20,435 bases of DNA, taken from contig CBDDTI010000012.1 in the NCBI GenBank assembly GCA_965233585.1, positions 1 through 20,435 of the forward strand, in the 5' to 3' direction. Made by a program: the position numbers and the translations under genes. Shown one piece after another: positions 1 through 20,435 of the stretch; within the stretch, counting starts at the first letter, position 1, and every line of letters starts with the position of its first letter. The stretch is from a bacterium. GTDB lineage: Bacteria > SAR324 > NAC60-12. A model generated the notes under the pieces. The model saw nothing but the letters and a program-made list of their open reading frames with translations. It did not search any database and had not been told where the DNA came from.

Positions 1-1250
1 CAAACAATTTTGATTCTATTCAGGTTGGCAGTAGACTGAACATAAGATGTCCGCTGCCCTGACCTTTGCCCGCTAAAGTTGTGGAAGGGCTGTGTATTTT
101 CATATTGTCTCCATTGTCTCCATTCAATATATTTTTCAGAGGGGTTGGTGGAATTGATCCCAAGAATGAAGACAAGTTGAAACTAATATCCGCTTCAAAA
201 TATATTGTAGCGACGGGTGATCCCTGAAGAGTTTTGTGGTGGGCGAATGTCGTTGGAGATCTCAAGAGATGCAATTTGAAACAAAAAAAATCCAACGGAC
301 ACCATTTGAACCCAACGGAAGTTTGAATTTCGCATGCGCTGCTGGGACATGGCAAAGCAGAAAAGTGTCGAACTTAGAAGGCTGCCACAGTGTGACAGTG
401 TGACCCACTTTGCATTCGAATTACCATGAACGACGTTTGTTGAAAGATGCTGCATAGTACACAGGTGATGCAATTCAATCCGCAGAACTTCAGCATGTCC
501 CACATTTCGCAGCTGGAGAAGAGCAAGTACATGGTACGGCGGTACGGGGCCAAGAATTGACATAGTTATCATAGTTGCCTTTGCAAAAATCCACTGTGTG
601 ATCTGTGTGGCCAATGTTTGGGAATCACCATGTAGAGTATGGACGCAGTCTTAATGCAGAAGAGATTCAGTGTGGATCCATCCAACTCATTCCCTCTGAG
701 ATCCATCTGAGATTTCTATAGATTTCTCAGTTTCTTTCCACGCTTTGGACAAGTTGACAACAGATATTTGATCAACGGACCAGACCACATCCATTTGCAG
801 TGAAGACTTGCACTTGGTGTTTTTCGATTAAAGTTCTTGCCCTGCAGATTTCTGGCCAAAACAACACGGTTTCACCCTGTGAAAAAGATGCGGAGGAAAC
901 CCTCGTTTTCGAAGATCGTCCCAGCACCTGAAGGCCATGAGCCGCCGCTGGGCGAAGATCCAGCGGCGAAGTTTGAACGGATCCAACTTCTTTTGCAGTC
1001 GCTGCAGGAGGATGTAAAGTTTGAGCATGGTGATCGGATCAACTCAGTGGCTTGGAGCCCAGATGGGAAAAAGGTGGCCACGGCCTCTGAGGACAAAACC
1101 TGTCGCATCTTTGATGTGGAGGCCCAGATAGAGGATGCAAAGTTTGAGCATGGCGGTCTGGTCAACTCAGTGGCTTGGAGCCCAGATGGGAAAAAGGTGG
1201 CCACGGCCTCCAAGGACAAAACCTGTCGCATCTTTGATGTGGAGTCCCAG
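1..1250 (+). repeat. Segmental duplication, copy 1 (upstream region plus WD40 gene start)
   Basis: 1-740 aligns with 10115-10774 and 732-1250 aligns with 12841-13425, with small indels. Confidence 0.93.
465..560 (+). other. Possible terminal coding exon of an upstream gene (VMQFNPQNFSMSHISQLEKSKYMVRRYGAKN*)
   Basis: Preceded by a CAG|G acceptor and ends in TGA. It lies in the best-conserved, indel-free part of the duplicated flank (paralog 10549-10644). No family recognised. Confidence 0.3.
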
Positions 1251-3260
1251 ATAGAGGATGCAAAGTTTGAGCATGGCGATTGGGTCTACTCAGTGGCTTG
1301 GAGCCCAGATGGGAAAAAGGTGGCCACGGCCTCTCACGACAAAACCTGTCGCATCTTTGATGTGGAGTCTGAGAGAGAGGATGCAAAGTTTGAGCATGGC
1401 GATGAAGTCAACTCAGTGGCTTGGAGCCCAGATGGGAAAAAGGTGGCCACGGCCTCTGACGACAAAACCTGCCGCGTCTTTGATGTGGAGTCTGAGAGAG
1501 AGGATGCAAAGTTTGAGCATGGCGATTGGGTCTACTCAGTGGCTTGGAGCCCAGATGGGAAAAAGGTGGCCACGGCCTCTGACGACAAAACCTGCCGCAT
1601 CTTTGATGTGGAGTCTGAGAGAGAGGATGCAAAGTTTGAGCATGGCGATGAAGTCAACTCGGTGGCTTGGAGCCCAGATGGGAAAAAGGTGGCCACGGCC
1701 TCTGACGACAAAACCTGCCGCATCTTTGATGTGGAGTCCCAGATAGAGGATGCAAAGTTTGAGCATGGCGATTGGGTCTACTCAGTGGCTTGGAGCCCAG
1801 ATGGGAAAAAGGTGGCCACGGCCTCAAAGGATAAAACCTGTCGCATCTTTGATGTGGAGTCCCAGAGAGAGGATGCAAAGTTTGAGCATGGCGATAGGGT
1901 CAACTCAGTGGCTTGGAGCCCAGATGGGAAAAAGGTGGCCACGGCCTCTGAGGACAAAACCTGTCGCATCTTTGACGTGGAGTCCCAGAGAGAGGATGCA
2001 AAGTTTGAGCATGGCAGAGGGGTCAACTCAGTGGCTTGGAGCCCAGATGGGAAGAAGGTGGCCACGGCCTCTGAGGACAACACCTGTCGCATCTTTGACG
2101 TGGAGTCCCAGAGAGAGGATGCAAAGTTTGAGCATGGCAGAGGGGTCAACTCAGTGGCTTGGAGCCCAGATGGGACAAAGGTGGCCACAGCCTCTGAGGA
2201 CAAAACCTGCCGCATCTTTGATGTGGAGTCCCAGATAGAGGATGCAAAGTTTGAGCATGGCGATTGGGTCTACTCAGTGGCTTGGAGCCCAGATGGGAAA
2301 AAGGTGGCCACGGCCTCAAAGGATAAAACCTGTCGCATCTTTGATGTGGAGTCCCAGAGAGAGGATGCAAAGTTTGAGCATGGCGATTCGGTCATCTCAG
2401 TGGCTTGGAGCCCAGATGGGAAAAAGGTGGCCACGGCCTCTCACGGCAAAACCTGCCGCGTCTTTGATGTGGAGTCTGAGAGAGAGGATGCAAAGTTTGA
2501 GCATGGCGATTGGGTCTACTCAGTGGCTTGGAGCCCAGATGGGAAAAAGGTGGCCACGGCCTCTGACGACAAAACCTGCCGCATCTTTGATGTGGAGTCT
2601 GAGAGAGAGGATGCAAAGTTTGAGCATGGCAGAGGGGTCAACTCAGTGGCTTGGAGCCCAGATGGGAAAAAGGTGGCCACGGCCTCTGACGACAAAACCT
2701 GTCGCATCTTTGATGTGGAGTCCCAGAGAGAGGATGCAAAGTTTGAGCATGGCAGAGGGGTCAACTCAGTGGCTTGGAGCCCAGATGGGAAAAAGGTGGC
2801 CACGGCCTCTGACGACAAAACCTGTCGCATCTTTGATGTGGAGTCCCAGAGAGAGGATGCAAAGTTTGAGCATGGCGATAGGGTCAACTCAGTGGCTTGG
2901 AGCCCAGATGGGAAAGAGGTGGCCACGGCCTCTTACGACAAAACCTGTCGCATCTTTGATGTGGAGTCCCAGATAGAGGATGCAAAGTTTGAGCATGGCG
3001 ATAGGGTATTCTCAGTGGCTTGGAGCCCAGATGGGAAAAAGGTGGCCACGGCCTCTTACGACAAAACCTCTCGCATCTTTGATGTGGAGTCCCAGAGAGA
3101 GGATGCAAAGTTTGCGCATGGCGATTGGGTCATCTCAGTGGCTTGGAGCCCAGATGGGAAAAAGGTGGCCACGGCCTCAAAGGACAAAACCTGTCGCATC
3201 TGGTCCTACTGGCAACAGCCGCTGTCTTATACATCTATCTTTTGGAGGTCTTTTGATTAG
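888..3260 (+). CDS. N-terminal WD40 beta-propeller part (18 x 41-aa repeats) of a WD40-TRP-like channel gene
   Basis: First ATG at 888 (MRRKPSF...); the ORF track starts at a TTG at 837. Repeat consensus EDAKFEHGxxVxSVAWSPDGKKVATASxDKTCRIFDVESQR is a textbook WD40 repeat. Ends at TAG 3258-3260, after which the same frame stays open. Confidence 0.92.
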   Translation: MRRKPSFSKIVPAPEGHEPPLGEDPAAKFERIQLLLQSLQEDVKFEHGDRINSVAWSPDGKKVATASEDKTCRIFDVEAQIEDAKFEHGGLVNSVAWSPDGKKVATASKDKTCRIFDVESQIEDAKFEHGDWVYSVAWSPDGKKVATASHDKTCRIFDVESEREDAKFEHGDEVNSVAWSPDGKKVATASDDKTCRVFDVESEREDAKFEHGDWVYSVAWSPDGKKVATASDDKTCRIFDVESEREDAKFEHGDEVNSVAWSPDGKKVATASDDKTCRIFDVESQIEDAKFEHGDWVYSVAWSPDGKKVATASKDKTCRIFDVESQREDAKFEHGDRVNSVAWSPDGKKVATASEDKTCRIFDVESQREDAKFEHGRGVNSVAWSPDGKKVATASEDNTCRIFDVESQREDAKFEHGRGVNSVAWSPDGTKVATASEDKTCRIFDVESQIEDAKFEHGDWVYSVAWSPDGKKVATASKDKTCRIFDVESQREDAKFEHGDSVISVAWSPDGKKVATASHGKTCRVFDVESEREDAKFEHGDWVYSVAWSPDGKKVATASDDKTCRIFDVESEREDAKFEHGRGVNSVAWSPDGKKVATASDDKTCRIFDVESQREDAKFEHGRGVNSVAWSPDGKKVATASDDKTCRIFDVESQREDAKFEHGDRVNSVAWSPDGKEVATASYDKTCRIFDVESQIEDAKFEHGDRVFSVAWSPDGKKVATASYDKTSRIFDVESQREDAKFAHGDWVISVAWSPDGKKVATASKDKTCRIWSYWQQPLSYTSIFWRSFD
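1008..3203 (+). repeat. 18 tandem 123-bp coding repeats (WD40)
   Basis: GAGGATG(C/T)AAAGTTTG recurs every 123 bp (1008, 1131, 1254 ... 3099). Units are nearly identical outside a few codons. Confidence 0.97.
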
Positions 3261-5336
3261 CAGTCCATTGGTGTTCGCGATGAAATCCTCGATAGAATCT
3301 TGTTTAAAGGCAGGCTGAATGTGACTCTGTTCGGAGTCCTTTGCTATTGTCGGTGCTTCTACCTCAAAGGCTGGAACGTCCCAATGCCCCCACTCAAGGA
3401 GAAGGAGTTGCAGGAACTTGTGGAAGGGAAACGGCAGAAACCTGGGGACCTTTGGGAGCTTGTGTGCAGTGTAGATGCTGAAGGCATCAGTCCCATGAGC
3501 CTGGCAATTGAAAGTGGGAATGCGCAGTGGATGGCTGCATACATCAACAAAGACGCTTTGAGTTACTTGAGTTCTTGCCACGCAGGTGAGCAGAACTGGC
3601 TGAGCTACCAGACAAGGTGTAAGTACTTGATCAGTGCCAGCAGTGCCATTGCCAAATTGCTGTCAATCCAGGAGCTTGGCAGGTTGAGCGATCCACTGAG
3701 CGATCTGCTGAAGCTTTTCGTTTTGCCAGTGGAAAAAAATCCTTACAAATCCAATGGGCAGCCTGTGCTAAACCGGGGCAATGCAGCCATCCAGTTGCAC
3801 CCGCTCGTCTCTGAAACCATTTGGTGGCCACAAGGCTTTGAGGAATCCCAATTGCCCACGGATGCTGGATACAAGATCGAACTGGCAGCAGATATTTTTG
3901 TCCTGCCGCAAATTCTTTCGAGCGACTTTCTGGCACAGCTGTGCGAGCAGGATATCCCCGAGGATCCCGTGGCCGTATTCTCGTGCACTCCAATCATGGC
4001 CGCAACACAATTCAAGTGGCAAACATGGAAATGGTATTACTACGGTGAATGCATTGTGTACTCTCTTTTCCAATTTCTGTACATGTGGGTCACAGTGCAG
4101 GGCATTGATGCTTTGAGCACTTGCATCGATGCGGATGATGGAAATGAAACTGATGTGAGCGGTGAAGATGCAGCAGATGAAGCAGATTCCTCTTGCTTTC
4201 CAGCCCAAGTGCAGAAAGCGAAACTGGCAGTCACAAGTTTGGCGCTTTTGATTGTCCTCCGTGAGTGCAGAGAGCTGTATGCAGTGGCGCGTGAGCTGTA
4301 TCTACTGTATGCAGTGGCCGATGATCTCCCCGAGGCCAAAACAGTTCAAGGATCTAACCACTTGGCAAAACTTCACAAGTTGCACAACATAGCAGTTATA
4401 GCATTCAACAAGGCAATGAAGTTGTTTCTTTCTTGGTCCTTTACACAGATGACCATGCCAATCCTTGTCATTGTGAACGTTTGGTTCCAAGAGTTGCTGC
4501 CGTTGCAGCCCATTGTCGCATGCTGGTCCTGGCTCTATGTTCTGTACTTTCTTGGTGGGCTGGACACAACCGGGGCCTATGTTGGCATGCTGTGGGAAGT
4601 CATCAAAGATATGCGAAGTTTCTCTGTAGTCCTTGTAGTTGTGATTCTTGGACTTGGCCACGCATTCTCTTTGGCAGCCCACAACAGAGACACTTGGAAT
4701 CAGCTCCAGCGGGTATACCGCATGGGCATCATGGGTGACTTTGAAGTCGACGATTATAATGTGGATGGCTCAGACCTGGAACAGCATCATATGCTTTACC
4801 TTTTCTTCATTTTGATCACAGTGTCCATCACCGTCTCCATGCTGAACTTACTCATTGCTGTAATCTCTGACACTTACGATCGAGTTAATGAAAACATGAT
4901 ATCACGGCTGAATTGGGCAAAGGCATCCCGGATTGCCGAATTGGAACGAACCTACGGAAAACGCCGCATGTGTGGCTTCTTGATGATCCTTCAACCAGCT
5001 CATGGCTCGGACACAGCAGGTTGGCAAGGAACAGTTGCAACAATTCCAAAGAGAACTCATCAAATCCTACAAGGAGAGCTGAAGGACGTCAAAGATGCGA
5101 TTCCAAAGACCCATGAAATCCTGCACAGAGAGCTGGAAGACGTCAAAGGAGAGCTGAAAGCAGAGCTGAAAGATGTGAAAGATGCGCAAGGAGAGCTGAA
5201 AGGAGAACTCAAAGAAGTTCACAAATTCCTGGAAGACCTTTCAGACAAATTCAACGCCAACGCTGGGTCATCTGGATTCAGAAGGAATGAAGCTCCTGCC
5301 GCAGAGGACATGTTCGACGACGTAATTTTGGAGTAA
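3261..5336 (+). CDS. TRP-like (TRPA/TRPV-type) 6-TM cation channel domain with ankyrin-like remnant and C-terminal coiled coil; in-frame continuation of the WD40 ORF
   Basis: Ankyrin-like DAEGISPMSLAIESGNAQWMAAYI, pre-S1 P..AATQFKW and six hydrophobic segments. S4-S5 linker TGAYVGMLWEVIKDM, S5 ending LGHAFSL, pore YRMGIMGDFEVDDY, S6 MLNLLIAVISDTYDRV, TRP-helix-like WAKASRIAELE, and heptads ELKDVK. No stop between 3261 and the TTG at 3300. Confidence 0.88.
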   Translation, partial: QSIGVRDEILDRILFKGRLNVTLFGVLCYCRCFYLKGWNVPMPPLKEKELQELVEGKRQKPGDLWELVCSVDAEGISPMSLAIESGNAQWMAAYINKDALSYLSSCHAGEQNWLSYQTRCKYLISASSAIAKLLSIQELGRLSDPLSDLLKLFVLPVEKNPYKSNGQPVLNRGNAAIQLHPLVSETIWWPQGFEESQLPTDAGYKIELAADIFVLPQILSSDFLAQLCEQDIPEDPVAVFSCTPIMAATQFKWQTWKWYYYGECIVYSLFQFLYMWVTVQGIDALSTCIDADDGNETDVSGEDAADEADSSCFPAQVQKAKLAVTSLALLIVLRECRELYAVARELYLLYAVADDLPEAKTVQGSNHLAKLHKLHNIAVIAFNKAMKLFLSWSFTQMTMPILVIVNVWFQELLPLQPIVACWSWLYVLYFLGGLDTTGAYVGMLWEVIKDMRSFSVVLVVVILGLGHAFSLAAHNRDTWNQLQRVYRMGIMGDFEVDDYNVDGSDLEQHHMLYLFFILITVSITVSMLNLLIAVISDTYDRVNENMISRLNWAKASRIAELERTYGKRRMCGFLMILQPAHGSDTAGWQGTVATIPKRTHQILQGELKDVKDAIPKTHEILHRELEDVKGELKAELKDVKDAQGELKGELKEVHKFLEDLSDKFNANAGSSGFRRNEAPAAEDMFDDVILE

Positions 5337-9864: not shown

Positions 9865-10785
9865 TGATGCAAATCTTCCCCTGACAAAAAAGCAGAAGCT
9901 GTGGAGATTTGCAGAGCTGTTTTGATTGTTTCGTGAGTCACTTTGACCTTGAGACTGGACAGATACTATCACGGTGGCAGAAACTCATGTGATTTGCAAA
10001 CTTCCAATCTTTTGCACCTGACCGACTGGTCCCTAGTTTGCGAGTTTGCAGTTGTACTCATACAGACGTTGCAAGGTGAAAGAGAATCATGGCAACCCAT
10101 GGAACTTCTTAGCACAAACAGTTTTGATTCTGTTCAGGTTGGCAGTAGACTGAACATAAGATGTCCGCTGCCCTGACCTTTGCCCGCTAAAGTTGTGGAA
10201 GGGCTGTGTATTTTCATATTACGTATGTATTAATGTGCATCTCCATTCAATATATTTTTCAGAGGGGTTGGCGGATTTGATCCCTCATGAAGATAGTGGG
10301 CGAACGTCCGGGTTGGAGACAAGATGTCTTAAGACTCAGATGCGGTTGATCACCTGACTTGAGTTGTCAAGAGATGCAACTTGAAACAAATTTCCAACGG
10401 ACACCATTTGAACCCAACGGAAGTTTGAACTTCTCATGGGCGAGCGGACATGGCAAAGCAGCAACTTCGAAGGCTGCCACAGTGTGACACGCTTGGCATT
10501 CGAATTACCATGAACGACGTATGTTGAAAGATGCTGCATAGTACACAGGTGATGCAATTCAATCCGCAGAACTTCAGCATGTCCCACATTTCGCAGCTGG
10601 AGAAGAGCAAGTGCATGGTACGGCGGTACGGGGCCAAGGATTGACATAGTTATCATAGTTGCCTTTGCAAAAATCCACTGTGTGATCTGTGTGGCCAATG
10701 TTTGGGAATCACCATGTAGAGTGTGGATGACTGACCCTCCGAGATTCATCTGAGATTTCTCATTTTCTTTCCATGGATATATTGC

Positions 10786-10930: not shown

Positions 10931-12755
10931 CCTACATGCAATATCAGTCCTCAATGCAAATCCTTCCCTTTCAAAGAGTTCTTGTCACGATTGCAAGTCA
11001 TTTCTTAAACTTAATCATCATTTTCAAAAATTTCCCCCCCAAAGCCCTACATGCAATGGTATTCCTCAATGCACATCCCTCCCTTTGATAGAGTTCTTGT
11101 CATGATGGCAAGTCATTTTCTAAACTTCCCTCCCCAAAGCCCTACATGCAATGGTATTCCTCAATGCAAATCCCTCCCTTTGATAGAGTCCTTGTCACGA
11201 TTGCAAGTTATTTTCTAAACTTCCCCCCCAAAACCCTACAAGCAATAGTAGTCCTCAATGCAAATCCTTCCCTTTCAAAGAGTTCTTGTCACGATTGCAA
11301 GTCATTTTCTAAACTTCCCCCCTCAAAGCCTACATGCAATGGTATTCCTTAATGCGCATCCTTCCCTTTCATAGAGTTCTTGTCACGATGGCAAGTCATT
11401 TTCAAAACTTCCCCCCCCAAAACCCTACATGCAATAGTAGCCCGCAATGCAAATCCTTGCCTTTCAAAGAGTTCTTGTCACGATTGCAAGTCATTTTCTA
11501 AACTTATCCCCCCCAAAGCCCTACATGCAATGGTATTCCTGAATGCACACCCTTCCCTTTCATACAGTTCTTGTCACGACTGCAAGTCATTTTCTAAACT
11601 TCCCTCCCCAAAGCCCTACATGCAATGGTATTCCTCAATGCAAATCCCTCCCTTTGATAGAGTCCTTGTCACGATTGCAAGTTATTTTCTAAACTTCCTC
11701 CCCCCAAAACCCTACATGCAATAGTAGTCCTCAATGCAAATCCTTCCCTTTCAAAGAGTTCTTGTCACGATTGCAAGTCATTTTCTAAACTCCCCCCCCC
11801 AAAGCCCTCCATGCAATCGTAATCCTCAATGCAAATCCCTCCCTTTCATACAGTTCTTGTCACGATTGCATGTCATTTTCTAAACTTCCCCCCCCCCAAA
11901 ACCCTACATGCAATAGTAGCCCGCAATGCAAATTCTTCCCTTTCAAAGAGTTCTTGTCACGATTGCAAGTCATTTTCTAAACTTATCCCCCCCCAAAGCC
12001 CTACATGCAATGGTATTCCTGAATGCACACCCTTCCCTTTCATACAGTTCTTGTCACGACTGCAAGTCATTTTCTAAACTTCCCTCCCCAAAGCCCTACA
12101 TGCAATGGTATTCCTCAATGCAAATCCCTCCCTTTGATAGAGTCCTTGTCACGATTGCAAGTTATTTTCTAAACTTCCTCCCCCCAAAACCCTACATGCA
12201 ATAGTAGTCCTCAATGCACATCCCTCCCTTTGATAGAGTTCTTGTCACGATGGCAAGTCATTTTCTAAACTTCCCCCCCAAAACCCTACACATGCAATAG
12301 TAGCCCTCAATGCAAATCCTTCCCTTTCATAGAATTCTTGTCACGATTGCAAGTCATTTTCAAAAATTTCCCCCCCCAAAGCCCTACATGCAATGGTATT
12401 CCTCAATGCCAATCCCTCCCTTTCATACAGTTCTTGTCACGATGGCTGGTCATTTTCTAAACTTCCCCCCCAAAGCCCTACATGCAATGTTATTCCTCAA
12501 TGCACATCCTTCCCTTTCATACAGTTCTTGTCACGATTGCATGTCATTTTCTAAACTTCCCCCCCCCAAAAACCCTACATGCAATAGTAGCCCGCAACGC
12601 AAATTCTTCCCTTTCAAAGAGTTCTTGTCACGATTGCAAGTCATTTTCTAAACTTCCCCCCAAAGCCCTACATGCAATGGTATTCCTCAATGCACATCCT
12701 TCCCTTTCAAAGAGTTCTTGTCACGATTGCAAGTTATTTTCTAAACTTCCCCCCC
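10931..12755 (+). repeat. About 96-bp minisatellite, about 19 copies, with a 480-bp higher-order period
   Basis: Unit CCTACATGCAATGGTATTCCTCAATGCAAATCCTTCCCTTTCAAAGAGTTCTTGTCACGATTGCAAGTCATTTTCTAAACTTCCCCCCCAAAGC. The stretch 11521-11730 recurs at 12001-12210. Confidence 0.95.
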
Positions 12756-13041
12756 TTGCATGAGAGTTTCCGCATCAGTATGTCAGTACAGTTTCCAAAA
12801 CCGGGCAGCTAAGACGAAGTTTCCGAATCCGACGTTGGCCTTCTTTCCATCCTTTTGACAAGTTGACAACAGAAATTCGACCAACGGACCAAGCAAACCT
12901 ACGAAGAAAGAAGACATCAAGACCACATTCATTTGCAGTAAAGCCATACACTTCATGTTCTTCGATTAAAATTCTCGCCTTGCCCTGCAGATGCCCTGCA
13001 GATTTCTGGCCAAAACAACACGGTTTCACCCTGTGAAAAAG

Positions 13042-13970
13042 ATGCGGAGCAAACCCTCGTTCTCCAAGATCGTCCCAGCACCTGAAGGCCATGAGCCGCC
13101 GGGCAAAGATCCACCGCCGCCGCTGGGCGAAGATCCAGCGGCGAAGTTTGAACGGATCCAACTTCTTTTGCAGTCGCTGCAGGAGGATGTAAAGTTTGAG
13201 CATGGTGATCGGATCAACTCAGTGGCTTGGAGCCCAGATGGGAAAAAGGTGGCCACGGCCTCTGAGGACAAAACCTGTCGCATCTTTGATGTGGAGGCCC
13301 AGATAGAGGATGCAAAGTTTGAGCATGGCGGTCTGGTCAACTCAGTGGCTTGGAGCCCAGATGGGAAAAAGGTGGCCACGGCCTCCAAGGACAAAACCTG
13401 TCGCATCTTTGATGTGGAGTCCCAGAGAGAGGATGCAAAGTTTGAGCATGGCGGTCTTGTCAACTCAGTGGCTTGGAGCCCAGATGGGAAAAAGGTGGCC
13501 ACGGCCTCCAAGGACAAAACCTGTTGCATCTTTGATGTGGAGTCTGAGAGAGAGGATGCAAAGTTTGAGCATGGCGGTCTGGTCAACTCAGTGGCTTGGA
13601 GCCCAGATGGGAAAAAGGTGGCCACGGCCTCCAGGGACAAAACCTGTCGCATCTTTGATGTGGAGTCCCAGAGAGAGGATGCAAAGTTTGAGCATAGTGA
13701 TGAGGTATATGAGGTCAGGTCAGTGGCTTGGAGCCCAGATGGGAAGAAGGTGGCCACGGCCTCTACTAACGACAGAACCTGTTGCATCTTTGATGTGGAG
13801 TCCCAGAGAGAGGATGCAAAGTTTGAGCATGGCCATGCGGTCATCGGAGTGGCTTGGAGCCCAGATGGGAAAAAGGTGGCCACGGCCTCCAAGGACAAAA
13901 CCTGTCGCATCTTTGATGTGGAGTCCCAGATAGAGGATGCAAAGTTTGAGCATGGGGATACGGTCTGGTC
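13042..13970 (+). pseudogene. Second WD40-repeat gene copy, truncated within repeat 7
   Basis: Paralogous N-terminus (MRSKPSFSK...) and 6 complete repeats from 13183. Homology stops at HGDTVWS (13970) and the frame runs into low-complexity DNA to a stop at 14145. No channel part is present in the window. Confidence 0.8.
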
Positions 13971-16900
13971 CAGGAAGCGTTCGAGGGAATTGGTTCCTGG
14001 ATTTGGCAGACTATTATTACTTTTTTTTTCCTGGGGGGGGTGGCAGACTATTATTACTTTTTTTTTTCTCTGGGGTGGGGGGGGCCTTATGATTATTATT
14101 TTTTTAATTCCTTTCTTGTCCTTTCCGGGATCGCCACTAATTTAGTCTACGGAAGCTTTTTCGTGCATTGAAATTAGTCTTGTGAGGCTTTCCTGTCCTT
14201 TCCCCTAGACTAACTATATATGCAAAAAAAAAGTCCCCTAGACTAAATATATCTTCAAAAAACAATTCGTAGACTAAATATATATACCAAAAAAAATCCG
14301 TAGATTAAATATATACTAAAAACAAATCCCCTAGACTAAATATATTTTCAAAAAAAAAACCGTATACTAAATATATCTTCAAAAAAAATCCGTAGACTAA
14401 ATATATATTTAAAAAAAAACCGTAGACTAAATCTATCTTCAAAAAAAAATCCCTAGACTAAATATATCTGCAAAAAAAATTCCCCTAGACTACATATGTC
14501 TTCAAACAAAAATTCTCCAGACTAAATATATCTTCAAAAAAAATCCGTAGACTAAATATATATACAAAAAAAAATCCGTAGATTAAATATATACTAAAAA
14601 AAAACATAGACTAAATATATTTTCCAAAAAAAGCCCGTAGACTAAATATATATTCAAAACAAAATCTGTAGACTAAATATATCTTCAAAAAAAAATCCGT
14701 AGACTAAATATATATTCAAAAGAAATCCGTAGACTAAATATATATTAAACAAAAAACCGTAGACTAAATCTATCTTCAAAAAAAAATCCCTAGACTAAAT
14801 ATATCTGTTAAAAAAAATTCTTAGACTAAATATATCTTTACAAAAAATCCCCTAGACTAAATATATCTTCAAAAAAAATCCGTAGACTAAATATATATTT
14901 TAAAAAAAACCGTAGACTAAATCTATCTTCAAAAAAAATCCCTAGACTAAATATATCTGCAAAAAAAATTCCCCTAGACTACATATGTCTTCAAACAAAA
15001 ATTCTCCAGACTAAATATATCTTCAAAAAAAAATCCGTAGACTAAATATATATACAAAAAAAATCCGTAGATTAAATATATACTAAAAAAAACATAGACT
15101 AAATATATTTTCCAAAAAAAGCCCGTAGACTAAATATATATTCAAAACAAAATCTGTAGACTAAATATATCTTCAAAAAAAAATCCGTAGACTAAATATA
15201 TATTCAAAAAAAATCCGTAGACTAAATATATATTAAACAAAAAACCGTAGACTAAATCTATCTTCAAAAAAAAATCCCTAGACTAAATATATCTGTTAAA
15301 AAATTTTCTTAGACTAAATATATCTTCACAAAAAATCCCCTAGACTAAATATATCTTCAAAAAAAATCCCCTAGACTAAGTATATCTTCCCAAAAAAAAT
15401 CCGAGACTAAATCTATATTCCAAAAAAAAACCTAGTAAAAAATTCAAGGACCTTCAAACATCGATTTTTTCCTTTTGAAAAGTGCTTCTTTTACAGGGTT
15501 TGGTGCCAAATCTGGACCCCTGGGCCTTTTGAAGCTCCAAAACCAATCTATATTCAAAAAAAAATCCACTAGACTAAATATATCTTCAAAAAAGTTCCCC
15601 TAGACTAAATATATCTGCAAAAAAAAATCTCCTAGACTACATATATCTTCAAAAAAAATTCTCCAGACTAAATATATCTTCAAAAAAAAAATCAGTAGAC
15701 TAAATATATATACAAAAAAAAATCCGTAGATTAAATATATACAAAAAAAAACCTAGACTAAATATATTTTCCAAAAAAAGCCCGTAGACTAAATATATAT
15801 TCAAAACAAAATCTGTAGACTAAATATATCTTCAAAAAAAATCCGTAGACTAAATATATATTCAAAAAAAATCCGTAGACTAAATATATATAAAAAAACC
15901 GTAGACTAAATATATATTCGAAAAAAAATCCGTAGACTAAAAAAAGTAATAATAATTGGCCGCCCCCCCCTCCGGTCTACGGGACGGGGGGGGTTCCACC
16001 AATTATTATTATTTCAAGTAATCGTAGTTGCTTCTCTCCCCATTATTATTACTTCAAGTAATAATAATTGCTCAAATCCCGGTTTCCCCCGATTATTATT
16101 ACTTGAAGTAATAATAATTGGTTGCCCCTCCCCCTCCCCCCCGAGAAAAAAAAAGTAATAATAATTGGCCGCCACCCCCCCCTCCGAAGAAAAAAAGTAA
16201 TAATAATTCAACACCCCCCGGCCCCCCTCACCGGTTTCTGCCTCTCACCCTAGACTAGATATATCTTCAAAAAAATTCCCCTAGACGAAATATATCTTCA
16301 AAAAAAATTCCCTAGACTAAATATATCTTCAAAAAAAATCCCCTAGACTAAATATATATTCAAAAAAAATCCCCTAGACTAAATATATCTTCAAGAAAAT
16401 TTCCCTAGACTAAATATATCTTCAAAAAATTCCCTAGACTAAATATATCTTCAAAAAAAGTCCCCTAGACTAAATATAGCTCCAAAAAAAATTCCCTAGG
16501 CTAAATATATCTTCAAAAAAATTGTCCTAGACTAAGTATATCTTGAAAAAAATCCCTAGACTAAATATATCTTTTAAAAAAATTCCCTAGACTAAATATA
16601 TCTTCAAAAAAAATCCCTGGACTAAATATATCTTCAAAAAAAAATCCCTAGACTAAATATATCTTCAAAAAAAATCCCTAGACTAAATATATCTTCAAAA
16701 AAATTCCCTAGACTAATTATATCTTCAAAAAAAACTTGCATACAAAAAATCAAACTTTCGAGGGCCTTCAAAAATCGATTTTTTCCTTTTAAAAAATGCT
16801 TGTTTTACAGGGTTTGGTGCCAAATCTGGACCCCTGGGCCTTTTGAAGCTCCAAAATCAAAATATATCCAAAAAAAAATCACCTAGACTAAATATATCTT

Positions 16901-19900
16901 CAAGAAAAGTTCCCCTAAACTAAATATATCTTCAAAAAAAATATCCCTAGACTAAATATATATACAAAAAAAATCCCCTAGACTAAATATATCTTCAAAA
17001 AAATTCCCTAGACTAAATATATCTTCAAAAAAAAATCCCTAGACTAAATATAGATTCAAAACAAAATCCGTAGACTAAATATATATTCAAAACAAAATCC
17101 TTAGACTAAATATATCTTCAAAAAAAATCCGCTAGACTAAATATATATTCAAAAAAAATCCGCTAGACTAAATATATCTTCACAAAAAAATCCGTAGACT
17201 AAAAAAAGTAATACTAATTGGCCGCCCCCCCCCCTCCGAAGAAAAAAAGTAATAATAATTCAACACCCCCCGGCCCCCATCACCCGTTCCGGGAGCTATT
17301 TCTGCCTTTCAATTCGTCTCCGGGAGCTTGTTCTGCCACTAATTTAGCTTACGGCAGCTTTTTCGTGCATTGAAATTCGTTTTCTGAGGCTTTCCTGTTC
17401 TTTCTGGGAATTATTTTTGCTCTGAATTTAGTCTCTGGGAGCTGTTTCTGCCATTAAATTAGTTGCGGGAGCCTTTTCTGCCACTAAATTCAAATTTCCG
17501 GGCGCTTTTTGTTGCCATCCAGGGCCTTTTCTGCCTTTAAAGTAGTCTCCGGGAGCTTTTTCTGCCACTAAAGTCCGCTTCCGAACGCATGTTGGTGATT
17601 CCGTGGGGGGAGGGGGTTTGTTCAATTATTATTATTTGAAATCATAATCGTTGCCCGCCCCCCCCCCGCGAAAAAAAAAGTAGTAATAATTGGCCGCTTC
17701 CCCCCTCCCCTTCGAAGAAAAAAAACAATTCAACACCCCCCGGCCCCCCTCACCGGTTCCGGGAGCTATTTTTGCCTCTCAAGTCGTTTCCGGGAGCTTG
17801 TTCTGTCACTGATTTCGTCTACGGCAGTTTTTTTGTGTATTGAAATTCGTTGTCCGGGATCGCCACTAATTTAGTCTACGGAAGCTTTTTCGTGCATTGA
17901 AATTAGTCTTGTGAGGCTTTCCTGTCCTTTCCGTTTTTTTTCCCCTAGACTAACTATATATGCAAAAAAAAAGTCCCCTAGACTAAATATATCTTCAAAA
18001 AACAATTCGTAGACTAAATATATATACCAAAAAAAATCCGTAGATTAAATATATACTAAAAAAAAACATAGACTAAATATATTTTCCAAAAAAAGCCCGT
18101 AGACTAAATATATATTCAAAACAAAATCTGTAGACTAAATATATCTTCAAAAAAAAATCCGTAGACTAAATATATATTCAAAAAAATCCGTAGACTAAAT
18201 ATATATTAAACAAAAAACCGTAGACTAAATCTATCTTCAAAAAAAAATCCCTAGACTAAATATATCTGTTAAAAAATTTTCTTAGACTAAATATATCTTC
18301 ACAAAAAATCCCCTAGACTAAATATATCTTCAAAAAAAATCCCCTAGACTAAGTATATCTTCCCAAAAAAAATCCGAGACTAAATCTATATTCCAAAAAA
18401 AAACCTAGTAAAAAATTCAAGGACCTTCAAACATCGATTTTTTCCTTTTGAAAAGTGCTTCTTTTACAGGGTTTGGTGCCAAATCTGGACCCCTGGGCCT
18501 TTTGAAGCTCCAAAACCAATCTATATTCAAAAAAAAATCCACTAGACTAAATATATCTTCAAAAAAGTTCCCCTAGACTAAATATATCTGCAAAAAAAAA
18601 TCTCCTAGACTACATATATCTTCAAAAAAAATTCTCCAGACTAAATATATCTTCAAAAAAAAAATCAGTAGACTAAATATATATACAAAAAAAAATCCGT
18701 AGATTAAATATATACAAAAAAAAACCTAGACTAAATATATTTTCCAAAAAAAGCCCGTAGACTAAATATATATTCAAAACAAAATCTGTAGACTAAATAT
18801 ATCTTCAAAAAAAAATCCGTAGACTAAATATATATTCAAAAAAAATCCGTAGACTAAATATATATAAAAAAAACCGTAGACTAAATATATATTCGAAAAA
18901 AAATCCGTAGACTAAAAAAAGTAATAATAATTGGCCGCCCCCCCCTCCGGTCTACGGGACGGGGGGGGTTCCACCAATTATTATTATTTCAAGTAATCGT
19001 AGTTGCTTCTCTCCCCATTATTATTACTTCAAGTAATAATAATTGCTCAAATCCCGGTTTCCCCCGATTATTATTACTTGAAGTAATAATAATTGGTTGC
19101 CCCTCCCCCTCCCCCCCGAGAAAAAAAAAGTAATAATAATTGGCCGCCACCCCCCCCTCCGAAGAAAAAAAGTAATAATAATTCAACACCCCCCGGCCCC
19201 CCTCACCGGTTTCTGCCTCTCACCCTAGACTAGATATATCTTCAAAAAAATTCCCCTAGACGAAATATATCTTCAAAAAAAATTCCCTAGACTAAATATA
19301 TCTTCAAAAAAAATCCCCTAGACTAAATATATATTCAAAAAAAATCCCCTAGACTAAATATATCTTCAAGAAAATTTCCCTAGACTAAATATATCTTCAA
19401 AAAATTCCCTAGACTAAATATATCTTCAAAAAAAGTCCCCTAGACTAAATATAGCTCCAAAAAAAATTCCCTAGGCTAAATATATCTTCAAAAAAATTGT
19501 CCTAGACTAAGTATATCTTGAAAAAAATCCCTAGACTAAATATATCTTTTAAAAAAATTCCCTAGACTAAATATATCTTCAAAAAAAATCCCTGGACTAA
19601 ATATATCTTCAAAAAAAAATCCCTAGACTAAATATATCTTTAAAAAAAATCCCTAGACTAAATATATCTTCAAAAAAATTCCCTAGACTAATTATATCTT
19701 CAAAAAAAACTTGCATACAAAAAATCAAACTTTCGAGGGCCTTCAAAAATCGATTTTTTCCTTTTAAAAAATGCTTGTTTTACAGGGTTTGGTGCCAAAT
19801 CTGGACCCCTGGGCCTTTTGAAGCTCCAAAATCAAAATATATCCAAAAAAAATCACCTAGACTAAATATATCTTCAAAAAAAGTTCCCCTAAACTAAATA

Positions 19901-20435
19901 TATCTTCAAAAAAAATATCCCTAGACTAAATATATATACAAAAAAAATCCCCTAGACTAAATATATCTTCAAAAAAATTCCCTAGACTAAATATATCTTC
20001 AAAAAAAAATCCCTAGACTAAATATAGATTCAAAACAAAATCCGTAGACTAAATATATATTCAAAACAAAATCCTTAGACTAAATATATCTTCAAAAAAA
20101 ATCCGCTAGACTAAATATATATTCAAAAAAAATCCGCTAGACTAAATATATCTTCACCAAAAAATCCGTAGACTAAAAAAAGTAATACTAATTGGCCGCC
20201 CCCCCCCCTCCGAAGAAAAAAAGTAATAATAATTCAACACCCCCCGGCCCCCGTCACCCGTTCCGGGAGCTATTTCTGCCTTTCAATTCGTCTCCGGGAG
20301 CTTGTTCTGCCACTAATTTAGCTTACGGCAGCTTTTTCGTGCATTGAAATTCGTTTTCTGAGGCTTTCCTGTTCTTTCTGGGAATTATTTTTGCTCTGAA
20401 TTTAGTCTCTGGGAGCTGTTTCTGCCATTAAATTA
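13971..20435. repeat. Complex AT-rich tandem array: about 29-31-bp satellite blocks plus spacers, arranged as 3.0-3.7-kb macro-repeats
   Basis: Monomer TAGACTAAATATATCTTCAAAAAAAATCC(C/G). The macro-unit restarts at 14124 and 17853 (TCCGGGATCGCCACTAATTTAGTCTACGG). Downstream landmarks recur at an offset of about 2974 bp. Confidence 0.95.

Follow-up and report, generated by a model that had tools for sequence, protein, structure and literature searches.

Contig CBDDTI010000012.1 (positions 1 to 20,435, analysed here at its full length and referred to as the window) is a complete contig, C12, of the 12-Mb, 747-contig 'prokaryote' genome GCA_965233585.1, and its forward strand carries two tandem copies, A and B, of a gene with an array of near-identical WD40 units. 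In copy A these units vary chiefly at four codons (9, 10, 12 and 28), the array is followed, behind an in-frame TAG, by a part homologous to TRP channels, and the pattern of variable sites recurs in an independent paralogue. The account that we favour, with a probability of roughly 0.6, is that copy A represents a Cladocopium-like WD40-TRP channel gene in which blades were amplified and the codons for the top face of the propeller were diversified by selection; the surface so formed would bind variable partners, and binding would modulate the channel. An earlier note, made from the letters of the window without database searches, had likened the repeats to those of HET-E, a fungal NOD-like receptor (NLR), and had missed the type of gene, which is predicted to be a dinoflagellate channel gene rather than an NLR.

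The WD40 array and its variable codons

The frame of copy A is open from 837 to 3260 and comprises an ATG at 888, a 40-residue leader (888..1007; MRRKPSFSK..., with which the full-length relatives P0034, P0018 and P0020 start identically), 17 complete units of 41 codons, or 123 nucleotides (nt), at 1008..3098, and an 18th unit (3099..3200) that is complete through codon 34 and then runs into an array-channel linker (3201..3257). The ...CRIWS.W junction at this point is the same in relatives, and the linker is conserved in P0004, P0005, P0008 and P0034. Tandem Repeats Finder reported 17.8 copies of the 123-nt period with 94% matches at 1008-3201, where the DNA identity among the 17 complete units and the partial one is 93%, and a second array of the same unit, with 6.2 copies, at 13183-13955. 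Copy B (13183-13970) holds six complete units, one of them of 45 codons, and a further unit cut at codon 12. The 18 repeats first counted in copy A thus stand as 17 complete units and one cut at codon 34, and the complete units of both copies number 23 instead of 24. Pfam family PF00400 matched the copy A protein (P0001) with 18 WD40 stretches (E=9.1e-177) and the copy B protein (P0002) with six; the scan matched 58 families, and all 25 listed are propeller families. WD40 repeats are characterised by a DHSW hydrogen-bond tetrad, formed by a His after strand d, an Asp in the b-c turn, a Ser or Thr, and a Trp in strand c; in the copy A units H7 and D29 are present and conserved, and the strand-c position is occupied by Phe (F35) instead of Trp.

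Among the 17 complete copy A units, 26 of the 41 amino-acid columns are invariant, and amino-acid identity is 0.945 outside codons 9, 10, 12 and 28 compared to 0.324 at these four codons. The mean pairwise identity of 0.884 (0.899 for adjacent units, and 0.96 for the best 82-residue window at offset 41 in an offset-identity scan) exceeds the cut-offs used for high internal conservation and for highly repetitive WD40 proteins, given as 85% over at least 100 residues by Dyrka (2014; PMC4986451) and as 0.7 by Hu (2017; PMC5587647). The hypervariable codons occupy nt 25-30, 34-36 and 82-84 of each unit, with units starting at 1008+123k. Codon 9 encodes three residues (D/R/G), codon 10 is represented by seven codons (TGG/GGG/AGG/GAA/CGG/CTG/TCG) for six residues, codon 12 by AAC/TAC/ATC/TTC for four residues, and codon 28 encodes five residues (D/E/K/H/Y), with V/I at codon 11 in between. 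All of the residue sets and multi-nucleotide codon changes that the earlier note had listed are present in this codon table.

To count changes we took, for each column, the minimum spanning set of steps between the codon states seen in 24 units from both copies; this gives a lower bound on events and, since it needs no tree, is robust to recombination. The four codons hold 20 of the 35 minimum non-synonymous steps (20 on 10.1 sites, compared to 15 on 86.9 sites at the remaining 37 codons), and piN is 0.40-0.44 at these codons versus 0.023-0.026 elsewhere, which bears out the proposal that variation is concentrated in a few non-synonymous codons. The accompanying statement that synonymous sites are almost invariant proved overstated. 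The count yields 16 minimum synonymous steps at 13 codons, with a pairwise piS of 0.10, and these steps gather next to the hypervariable codons: of the 12 that lie outside the four, seven fall in the five flanking codons (8, 11, 13, 27 and 29), versus 18% expected (P=0.002). Only the 32 distal codons are quiet, with five synonymous steps on 19.7 synonymous sites.

The same columns stand out across the protein family. The 185 units in 19 proteins reduce to 107 distinct ones; four of these had indels and were dropped, leaving 103 in register. Codons 10, 28, 12 and 9 show 13, 15, 13 and 11 residue types, respectively, and entropies of 3.4, 3.2, 3.1 and 2.3 bits, followed by codons 40 (1.6), 41 (1.5) and 30 (1.1), with all other columns at or below 0.7 bits. 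The 19 proteins present 66 distinct four-residue combinations at codons 9, 10, 12 and 28.

According to the rules of Wu et al. (2012; PMC3419727), the top-face hotspots of WD40 propellers are R1 and R1-2 in the pattern (V/L/I)-R1-R2-(V/L/I) where strand a begins, and D-1, the residue preceding the tetrad Asp. The window unit reads V11-x12-S13-V14 and x28-D29, placing codon 12 at R1, codon 10 at R1-2 and codon 28 at D-1. In HET-E, codons 7/9 and 25/27 are reported as selected; the first pair lies in the d-a loop and the second in the b-c turn, with a conserved residue between the members of each (Paoletti et al. 2007; PMC1805685); the window unit parallels these pairs, with 10/12 flanking V11 and 28/30 flanking D29. 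A by-eye alignment with the HET-E repeat printed in PMC12222747 likewise equates HET-E positions 11, 12, 14, 30 and 32 with window codons 9, 10, 12, 28 and 30. These sequence rules support the identification of codons 10, 12 and 28 as canonical top-face hotspots matching the sites selected in HET-E, and the parallel drawn in the earlier note is borne out by them.

The channel part and its host

Behind the in-frame TAG (3258..3260) the frame continues open for 2.07 kb (3261..5336, with the stop at 5334-5336). In the relatives examined, the codon at this position encodes Trp, and leader, array and channel form single proteins of 1150-1400 residues, the array-channel open reading frame (ORF) being continuous in P0034, P0018-P0022 and P0026. 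The channel part starts with a pre-S1 region that has ankyrin-like features; six hydrophobic segments follow, with an S6/TRP-helix motif of TRP type, and the tail is charged and repeat-rich. Comparison with PDB chains using phmmer matched it to Inactive (1.5e-8), to TRPV5, TRPV6, TRPV3 and TRPV2 (3e-7 to 2e-6), and also to Nanchung and a Chlamydomonas TRP-like channel, in alignments spanning S4-S6 and the following helix. The Pfam Ion_trans model matched at 19.2 bits, below its cut-off of 25. Across 12 WD40-channel proteins (the window protein and 11 distant relatives) the motif ...LNLLIA...D.Y is invariant or near-invariant.

An exhaustive search returned 1012 relatives of the transmembrane part at E<=0.001. 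We scanned 26 long relatives, and 18 of them have WD40-type propeller matches N-terminal to the channel-matching part, mostly together with an Ion_trans or PKD_channel match in that part; three have ankyrin repeats, one of these along with weak propeller matches. The WD40-channel relatives include proteins of Paulinella, Protocruzia and Mucochytrium. Among 87 proteins with 400 residues or more, 16, all in the close family, have an adjacent-blade identity of 0.83 or above; distant relatives reach at most 0.35, apart from one at 0.59. This restriction of near-identical blades to the close family suggests an old WD40-TRP gene whose propeller was rebuilt by recent blade amplification in this lineage. 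By domain order, gene A is predicted to encode a TRP-type channel with an N-terminal WD40 domain, an architecture like that of TRPW, the TRP-related channels with N-terminal WD40 named in 2026 and exemplified by Salpingoeca rosetta TRPW1 (bioRxiv 10.64898/2026.06.15.732144; PNAS 2026, PMC13663828). The TRPW1 chain is not among the best 60 of the 99 PDB matches to the channel part.

Within the pre-S1 region, 3384-4020 (residues 28-240 of P0003) has no Pfam match and shows language-model features like the ankyrin/TRP_2 part of TRPC channels, with a score of 0.92 that we treat as a lead only; an ankyrin-like D..G.SP...A motif is conserved across WD40-channel relatives. In the C-terminal tail (5145-5214 and 5251-5332) a 12-nt repeat encodes reiterated E/K/G/L motifs. 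The length of this tail differs among relatives, and contigs of one metagenome run replace 73-80 nt there.

The nearest named proteins come from Cladocopium sp. Y103 (EukProt) and Cladocopium goreaui, both Symbiodiniaceae. Family members sit on public contigs of up to 1.36 Mb, several per contig, and the channel stretch was found in coral metagenomes and in six RNA-library runs, one of them a polyA library. Judged by this homology, the contig is a Cladocopium-like dinoflagellate nuclear fragment in a bacterial bin, and not bacterial DNA. A motif search for a dinoflagellate spliced-leader relic gave no matches. The bin itself looks mixed and about half non-bacterial: of the 322 contigs that reach 10 kb, long ORFs cover less than 60% in 244 (4.35 Mb) and at least 75% in 44 (3.97 Mb). 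A marker-gene contamination estimate of 2% would miss the non-bacterial half, and the practical warning is that roughly half of a 12-Mb 'prokaryote' genome is DNA of low coding density.

The TAG codon was found with no differences in a DNA contig of run X1, perhaps the source sample, and unchanged in an RNA-library contig (run X15 of a different study) that extends from the last WD40 unit across the TAG. Other assemblies contain 650-residue, channel-only gene calls that begin at a Met behind the TAG, and several strain variants of the channel part are present in other runs. This comparison of runs was made with contigs, in which depth and absence are uninformative and other alleles at 3259 may exist beyond the differences listed. 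The TAG appears to be a real nonsense allele and a probable polymorphism: its presence in both DNA and RNA contigs, together with the channel-only calls, suggests that it segregates and separates array from channel.

Concerted evolution, selection and rival explanations

Inside the 123-nt unit, all four gametes are present in 30 of 91 pairs of informative sites, and several units are identical in DNA (A7=A11, A5=A13, A14=A15 and A1=B1). The window array was compared with that of metagenome contig L010, an independent paralogue whose channel part is 56% identical and which has five units: units of one array are 0.93 identical to each other, in either array, and 0.82 identical to those of the other array, with array-specific substitutions. 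Unit number also differs among relatives, with 18 in the window, 16 in P0034, 15 in P0018, 14 in P0020 and 10 in P0026, in assemblies that may be imperfect. These data support concerted evolution of the arrays with recombination and exchange between units, in agreement with the earlier note.

Searches for further copies in the same genome found none, all 13 matches being on the window contig itself, and a scan of contigs from other genomes with the channel protein gave nothing. A search with a 20-mer of the repeat gave seven single chance matches in bacterial metagenome-assembled genomes, and no arrays. The metagenome scan recovered three loci, with repeats only in L010.

Measured against the array-wide synonymous rate (dS), the pooled ratio of non-synonymous to synonymous change (omega) at the four codons is 3.4 (binomial P=4.5e-4), for sites that were chosen post hoc. 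A Poisson mixture model blind to sites placed 11% of codons in a class with omega2=3.0 (2dlnL=7.69, chi-square P=0.021), a statistic reached by none of 100 parametric bootstraps; codons 10, 12 and 28 belong to this class with posteriors exceeding 0.95, and codon 9 with one of 0.68. Relative to the 32 distal codons, omega at the four codons is 7.8 (20 non-synonymous steps on 10.1 sites versus five synonymous steps on 19.7; P=2.9e-6), and the non-synonymous excess also holds against all synonymous steps outside these codons (P=1.1e-4). The remaining 37 codons have an omega of 0.29, and the codons adjoining the variable ones (G8, V11, S13, S27 and D29) are purified, with 0.37 non-synonymous versus 1.62 synonymous steps per site.

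The independent paralogue repeats the pattern. In L010, the variable codons are again 9, 10, 12, 28 and 30, and codons 11 and 12 have also changed synonymously; its eight non-synonymous steps at the hypervariable codons compare to two distal synonymous steps (omega 8.3, P=0.003) or to all five synonymous steps (omega 4.3, P=0.010). Units at matching positions in different assemblies have 15 of 49 differences in the four hypervariable columns, a weakly supportive figure, with the register uncertain for one pair. Variants at the hypervariable codons include 12 transversions in 19, compared to 10 in 25 elsewhere, and start from G in 14 of 19 cases, from A in four and from T in one. The repeat unit forms no DNA hairpin or other unusual secondary structure (z=0.21). 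We also considered a diversity-generating retroelement target, which would combine adenine-specific variation against a template repeat with a reverse transcriptase nearby, and rejected it: the adenine-specific pattern is absent, and neither seven small ORFs elsewhere in the window nor the 380 residues behind the TAG have a Pfam match.

Simple relaxed constraint with a uniform rate is firmly rejected, because an unconstrained site in a homogenising array should not exceed the distal synonymous diversity. Two explanations are left, namely selection that maintains diversity, with linked synonymous sites hitch-hiking, and local hypermutation. We favour selection as the best reading, short of proof, because the islands of variation match structural contact positions, the codons between the variable ones (V11, S13, S27, D29 and G8) are purified, the variants are rich in transversions without adenine bias, and the unit lacks a DNA hairpin. 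The diversifying selection put forward in the earlier note is only partly supported: by the array-wide omega, by the mixture model and by the repetition in L010, but not by the comparison with local synonymous change or by single-site tests.

Several points weigh against the reading of selection on a channel-linked recognition surface. When omega is calculated against local dS (the four codons and their five neighbours, with 11 synonymous steps on 6.3 sites) it falls to 1.13 (P=0.45), and codon 10 alone, with P=0.0017, reaches only about 0.07 once corrected for 41 codons. Own-site SLAC (single-likelihood ancestor counting)-type tests on one maximum-likelihood tree are non-significant (P 0.26-0.75) and without power; a single-tree Sankoff count gave 10, 11, 5 and 4.8 non-synonymous changes at codons 10, 28, 12 and 9, and recombination makes the tree behind the SLAC-type tests invalid. 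Event counts are small and come from one contig and one paralogue. The array probably derives from a metagenome assembly, with order and number uncertain for 3 of its 18 units. The in-frame TAG and the truncated copy B may mean that both copies are decaying. Furthermore, the activation of TRPW1 is tied to hydrophobic molecules, and the role of its WD40 domain, in protein interaction, is only proposed in that report (bioRxiv 10.64898/2026.06.15.732144).

Under local hypermutation, or escape from homogenisation, without positive selection, the islands at codons 8-13 and 27-29 would mutate faster or be skipped by conversion tracts, with loop residues unconstrained (omega about 1) and framework residues inside the islands purified. 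Such a process accounts for the 11 of 16 synonymous steps that lie in nine codons (the hypervariable ones and those adjoining), for the local omega of 1.13 and for the similar clustering of synonymous change in L010, and the multi-nucleotide codon differences (GAT/AGA, TGG/GAA) could come from complex mutational events. It has, however, no reason to know the contact positions and the HET-E selected sites, which the islands match exactly; the variants do not show the adenine pattern of diversity-generating retroelements, the unit has no unusual secondary structure, and raised linked synonymous diversity is equally predicted by balancing selection. We therefore regard this explanation as unlikely.

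The remaining alternatives concern the array as a sequence and the gene as a functional unit. Arrays of near-identical repeats are often mis-assembled from short reads, with units both invented and lost by the assemblers (PMC12222747); we therefore treat units 1-3 of the window array and its total number of units as provisional. An array that was chimeric from reads of paralogues or strains would turn part of the variation between blades into variation between genes or strains, and it would suit a contig in a mixed bin, three initial units unlike those of P0034, and strain variants of the channel part in other runs. We nevertheless consider it quite improbable: window units 4-18 equal units 2-16 of P0034, from another public assembly, in order and with four amino-acid differences, all 19 family proteins, and L010 as well, show this pattern of sites, and the conclusion on the variable codons is independent of unit order. 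Decay of dead genes, with the variation as neutral drift, would be in keeping with the TAG at a codon that is Trp in the relatives examined and with copy B ending in satellite DNA, and disruption, including in-frame stops, is described as frequent in recently amplified or highly repetitive propellers (PMC9218822). Yet the 2.4-kb array and the 2.07 kb behind the TAG have no other stop or frameshift, omega is 0.29 at the other 37 codons, uninterrupted relatives of 1150-1400 residues have the same pattern, and the region is present in RNA libraries, all of which makes decay very improbable as the source of the pattern.

In the account that we prefer, the N-terminal and presumably cytoplasmic WD40 domain would have been rebuilt by the recent amplification of one 41-residue blade to 10-18 near-identical blades. 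Unequal crossing-over and gene conversion would hold the blade framework uniform and alter blade number, while R1-2, R1 and D-1 (codons 10, 12 and 28), along with codon 9, would be kept different between blades and between paralogues. The most likely cause would be selection that keeps a protein-binding surface diverse, or makes it so, in the manner of the fungal NLR sensor domains of HET-E/NWD type, with short tracts of linked synonymous variation hitch-hiking beside the selected codons.

Surrounding sequence and comparison with known systems

The region upstream of copy A (1..643) is duplicated upstream of copy B at 10115-10727 with 83.5% identity. Copy B (12991..13970, forward strand) has the same N-terminus with a proline-rich insertion, which is also found in several relatives, followed by its six complete units and one partial unit; it breaks off in this seventh unit into a non-coding 31-nt satellite, and is either a paralogue that has been truncated or the product of a break in the assembly. 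Over the leader and units 1 and 2 (837-1376 and 12991-13551) the two copies are 97.4% identical, with no difference in unit 1, and the upstream non-coding DNA is 88.9% identical, a contrast that would be consistent with gene conversion between the tandem paralogues. The 45-codon unit of copy B (13675-13809) has insertions of three codons in the d-a loop and one codon in the b-c turn, exactly at both hypervariable sites; given that this odd unit recurs in P0020, it appears to be an inherited length variant of the contact loops. The A/T-rich satellite occupies 14206-17203, 17946-18916 and 19223-20177 (about 98, 32 and 31 copies) and alternates with copies of a block some 740 nt long; the satellite fills the final 6.4 kb, adjoins the copy B break and was found nowhere else in the bin. 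A second tandem array, of a 95-nt C-rich unit, separates the duplicated upstream region from copy B (11018-12755, 18 copies, 87% matches) and has matches on one other contig (C287). An Rfam scan of the window gave no matches, and Pfam found no families in the seven small ORFs elsewhere in the window or in the pre-S1 region (380 residues after the TAG).

Literature searches, covering listings of papers and the papers cited here, turned up no account of a TRP-type channel with a WD40 array of this near-identical, hypervariable kind, and this setting, on the channel of a coral symbiont, appears to be undescribed. Near-identical arrays with hypervariable contacts are taken as a hallmark of non-self recognition in fungal NLRs and bacterial STAND proteins, and their presence on the presumably cytoplasmic domain of a channel of TRP type widens the range of 'repertoire' evolution. 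The pattern hints at a fast-diversifying sensor attached to a channel. As a tentative and rather doubtful extension, Symbiodiniaceae may carry tandemly clustered 'receptor-channels' in which an NLR-style diversifying WD40 surface, with at least 66 contact combinations, is fused to a TRP channel and converts a variable partner into a Ca2+ or cation signal. If true, recognition of a partner (a viral, bacterial or host-derived protein) and a cation signal would be joined within a single polypeptide, an innate-recognition design undescribed for any channel that bears on how coral symbionts sense partners or pathogens. The array pattern itself offers, for WD40-bearing TRP channels, a testable proposal on propeller function, namely variable partner recognition, and marks out a candidate sensing gene family in an organism whose machinery of symbiosis recognition and signalling is poorly known.

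Three groups of known proteins come closest to the window family. As described for HET-E, HET-D and NWD proteins of Podospora anserina (PMC1805685, PMC12222747 and PMC4986451), it has near-identical tandem WD40 units in variable number with recombination between them, hypervariability at the same two position pairs flanking a conserved residue (d-a loop/strand a and b-c turn), and an array length, 10-18 units in the window family, that misfits one propeller. Unlike those proteins, its unit has 41 residues and not 42, its array is N-terminal and fused to a six-transmembrane TRP-type channel, and its host is a dinoflagellate rather than a fungus, so that repeat-induced point mutation cannot be invoked. 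We rejected membership in the HET-E/NWD-type fungal NLRs, which have a central NACHT/NOD domain and an N-terminal effector domain: the window gene has neither, its array is preceded by just 40 residues, and full-length relatives continue into the channel.

Near-identical units of 41 residues are shared with WRAP and other highly repetitive bacterial WD40 proteins (2ymu, and the WRAP-T designs 7bie and 7bid; Pereira and Lupas 2022, PMC9218822; Hu 2017, PMC5587647). The best solved match to the array is 2ymu (E=3e-202), whose 41-residue units align without gaps and whose blades also vary at the column matching window codon 12. After the members of its own family, the array finds its next best matches among bacterial highly repetitive propellers, at only 40-48% identity. 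As reported in those two papers, such proteins are bacterial and often linked to STAND NTPases, in contrast with the predicted eukaryotic, channel-fused array of the window.

In domain order the window family resembles TRPW, which shares the N-terminal WD40 domain, an optional ankyrin-like region, a TRP-type transmembrane domain and a charged C-terminal tail, in an architecture that is widespread in protists. The TRPW1 propeller is described as intracellular and seven-bladed (bioRxiv 10.64898/2026.06.15.732144; PMC13663828). Whereas TRPW1 thus carries one ordinary seven-blade propeller, the window family has 10-18 blades with a mean amino-acid identity of 88% and hypervariable contact residues.

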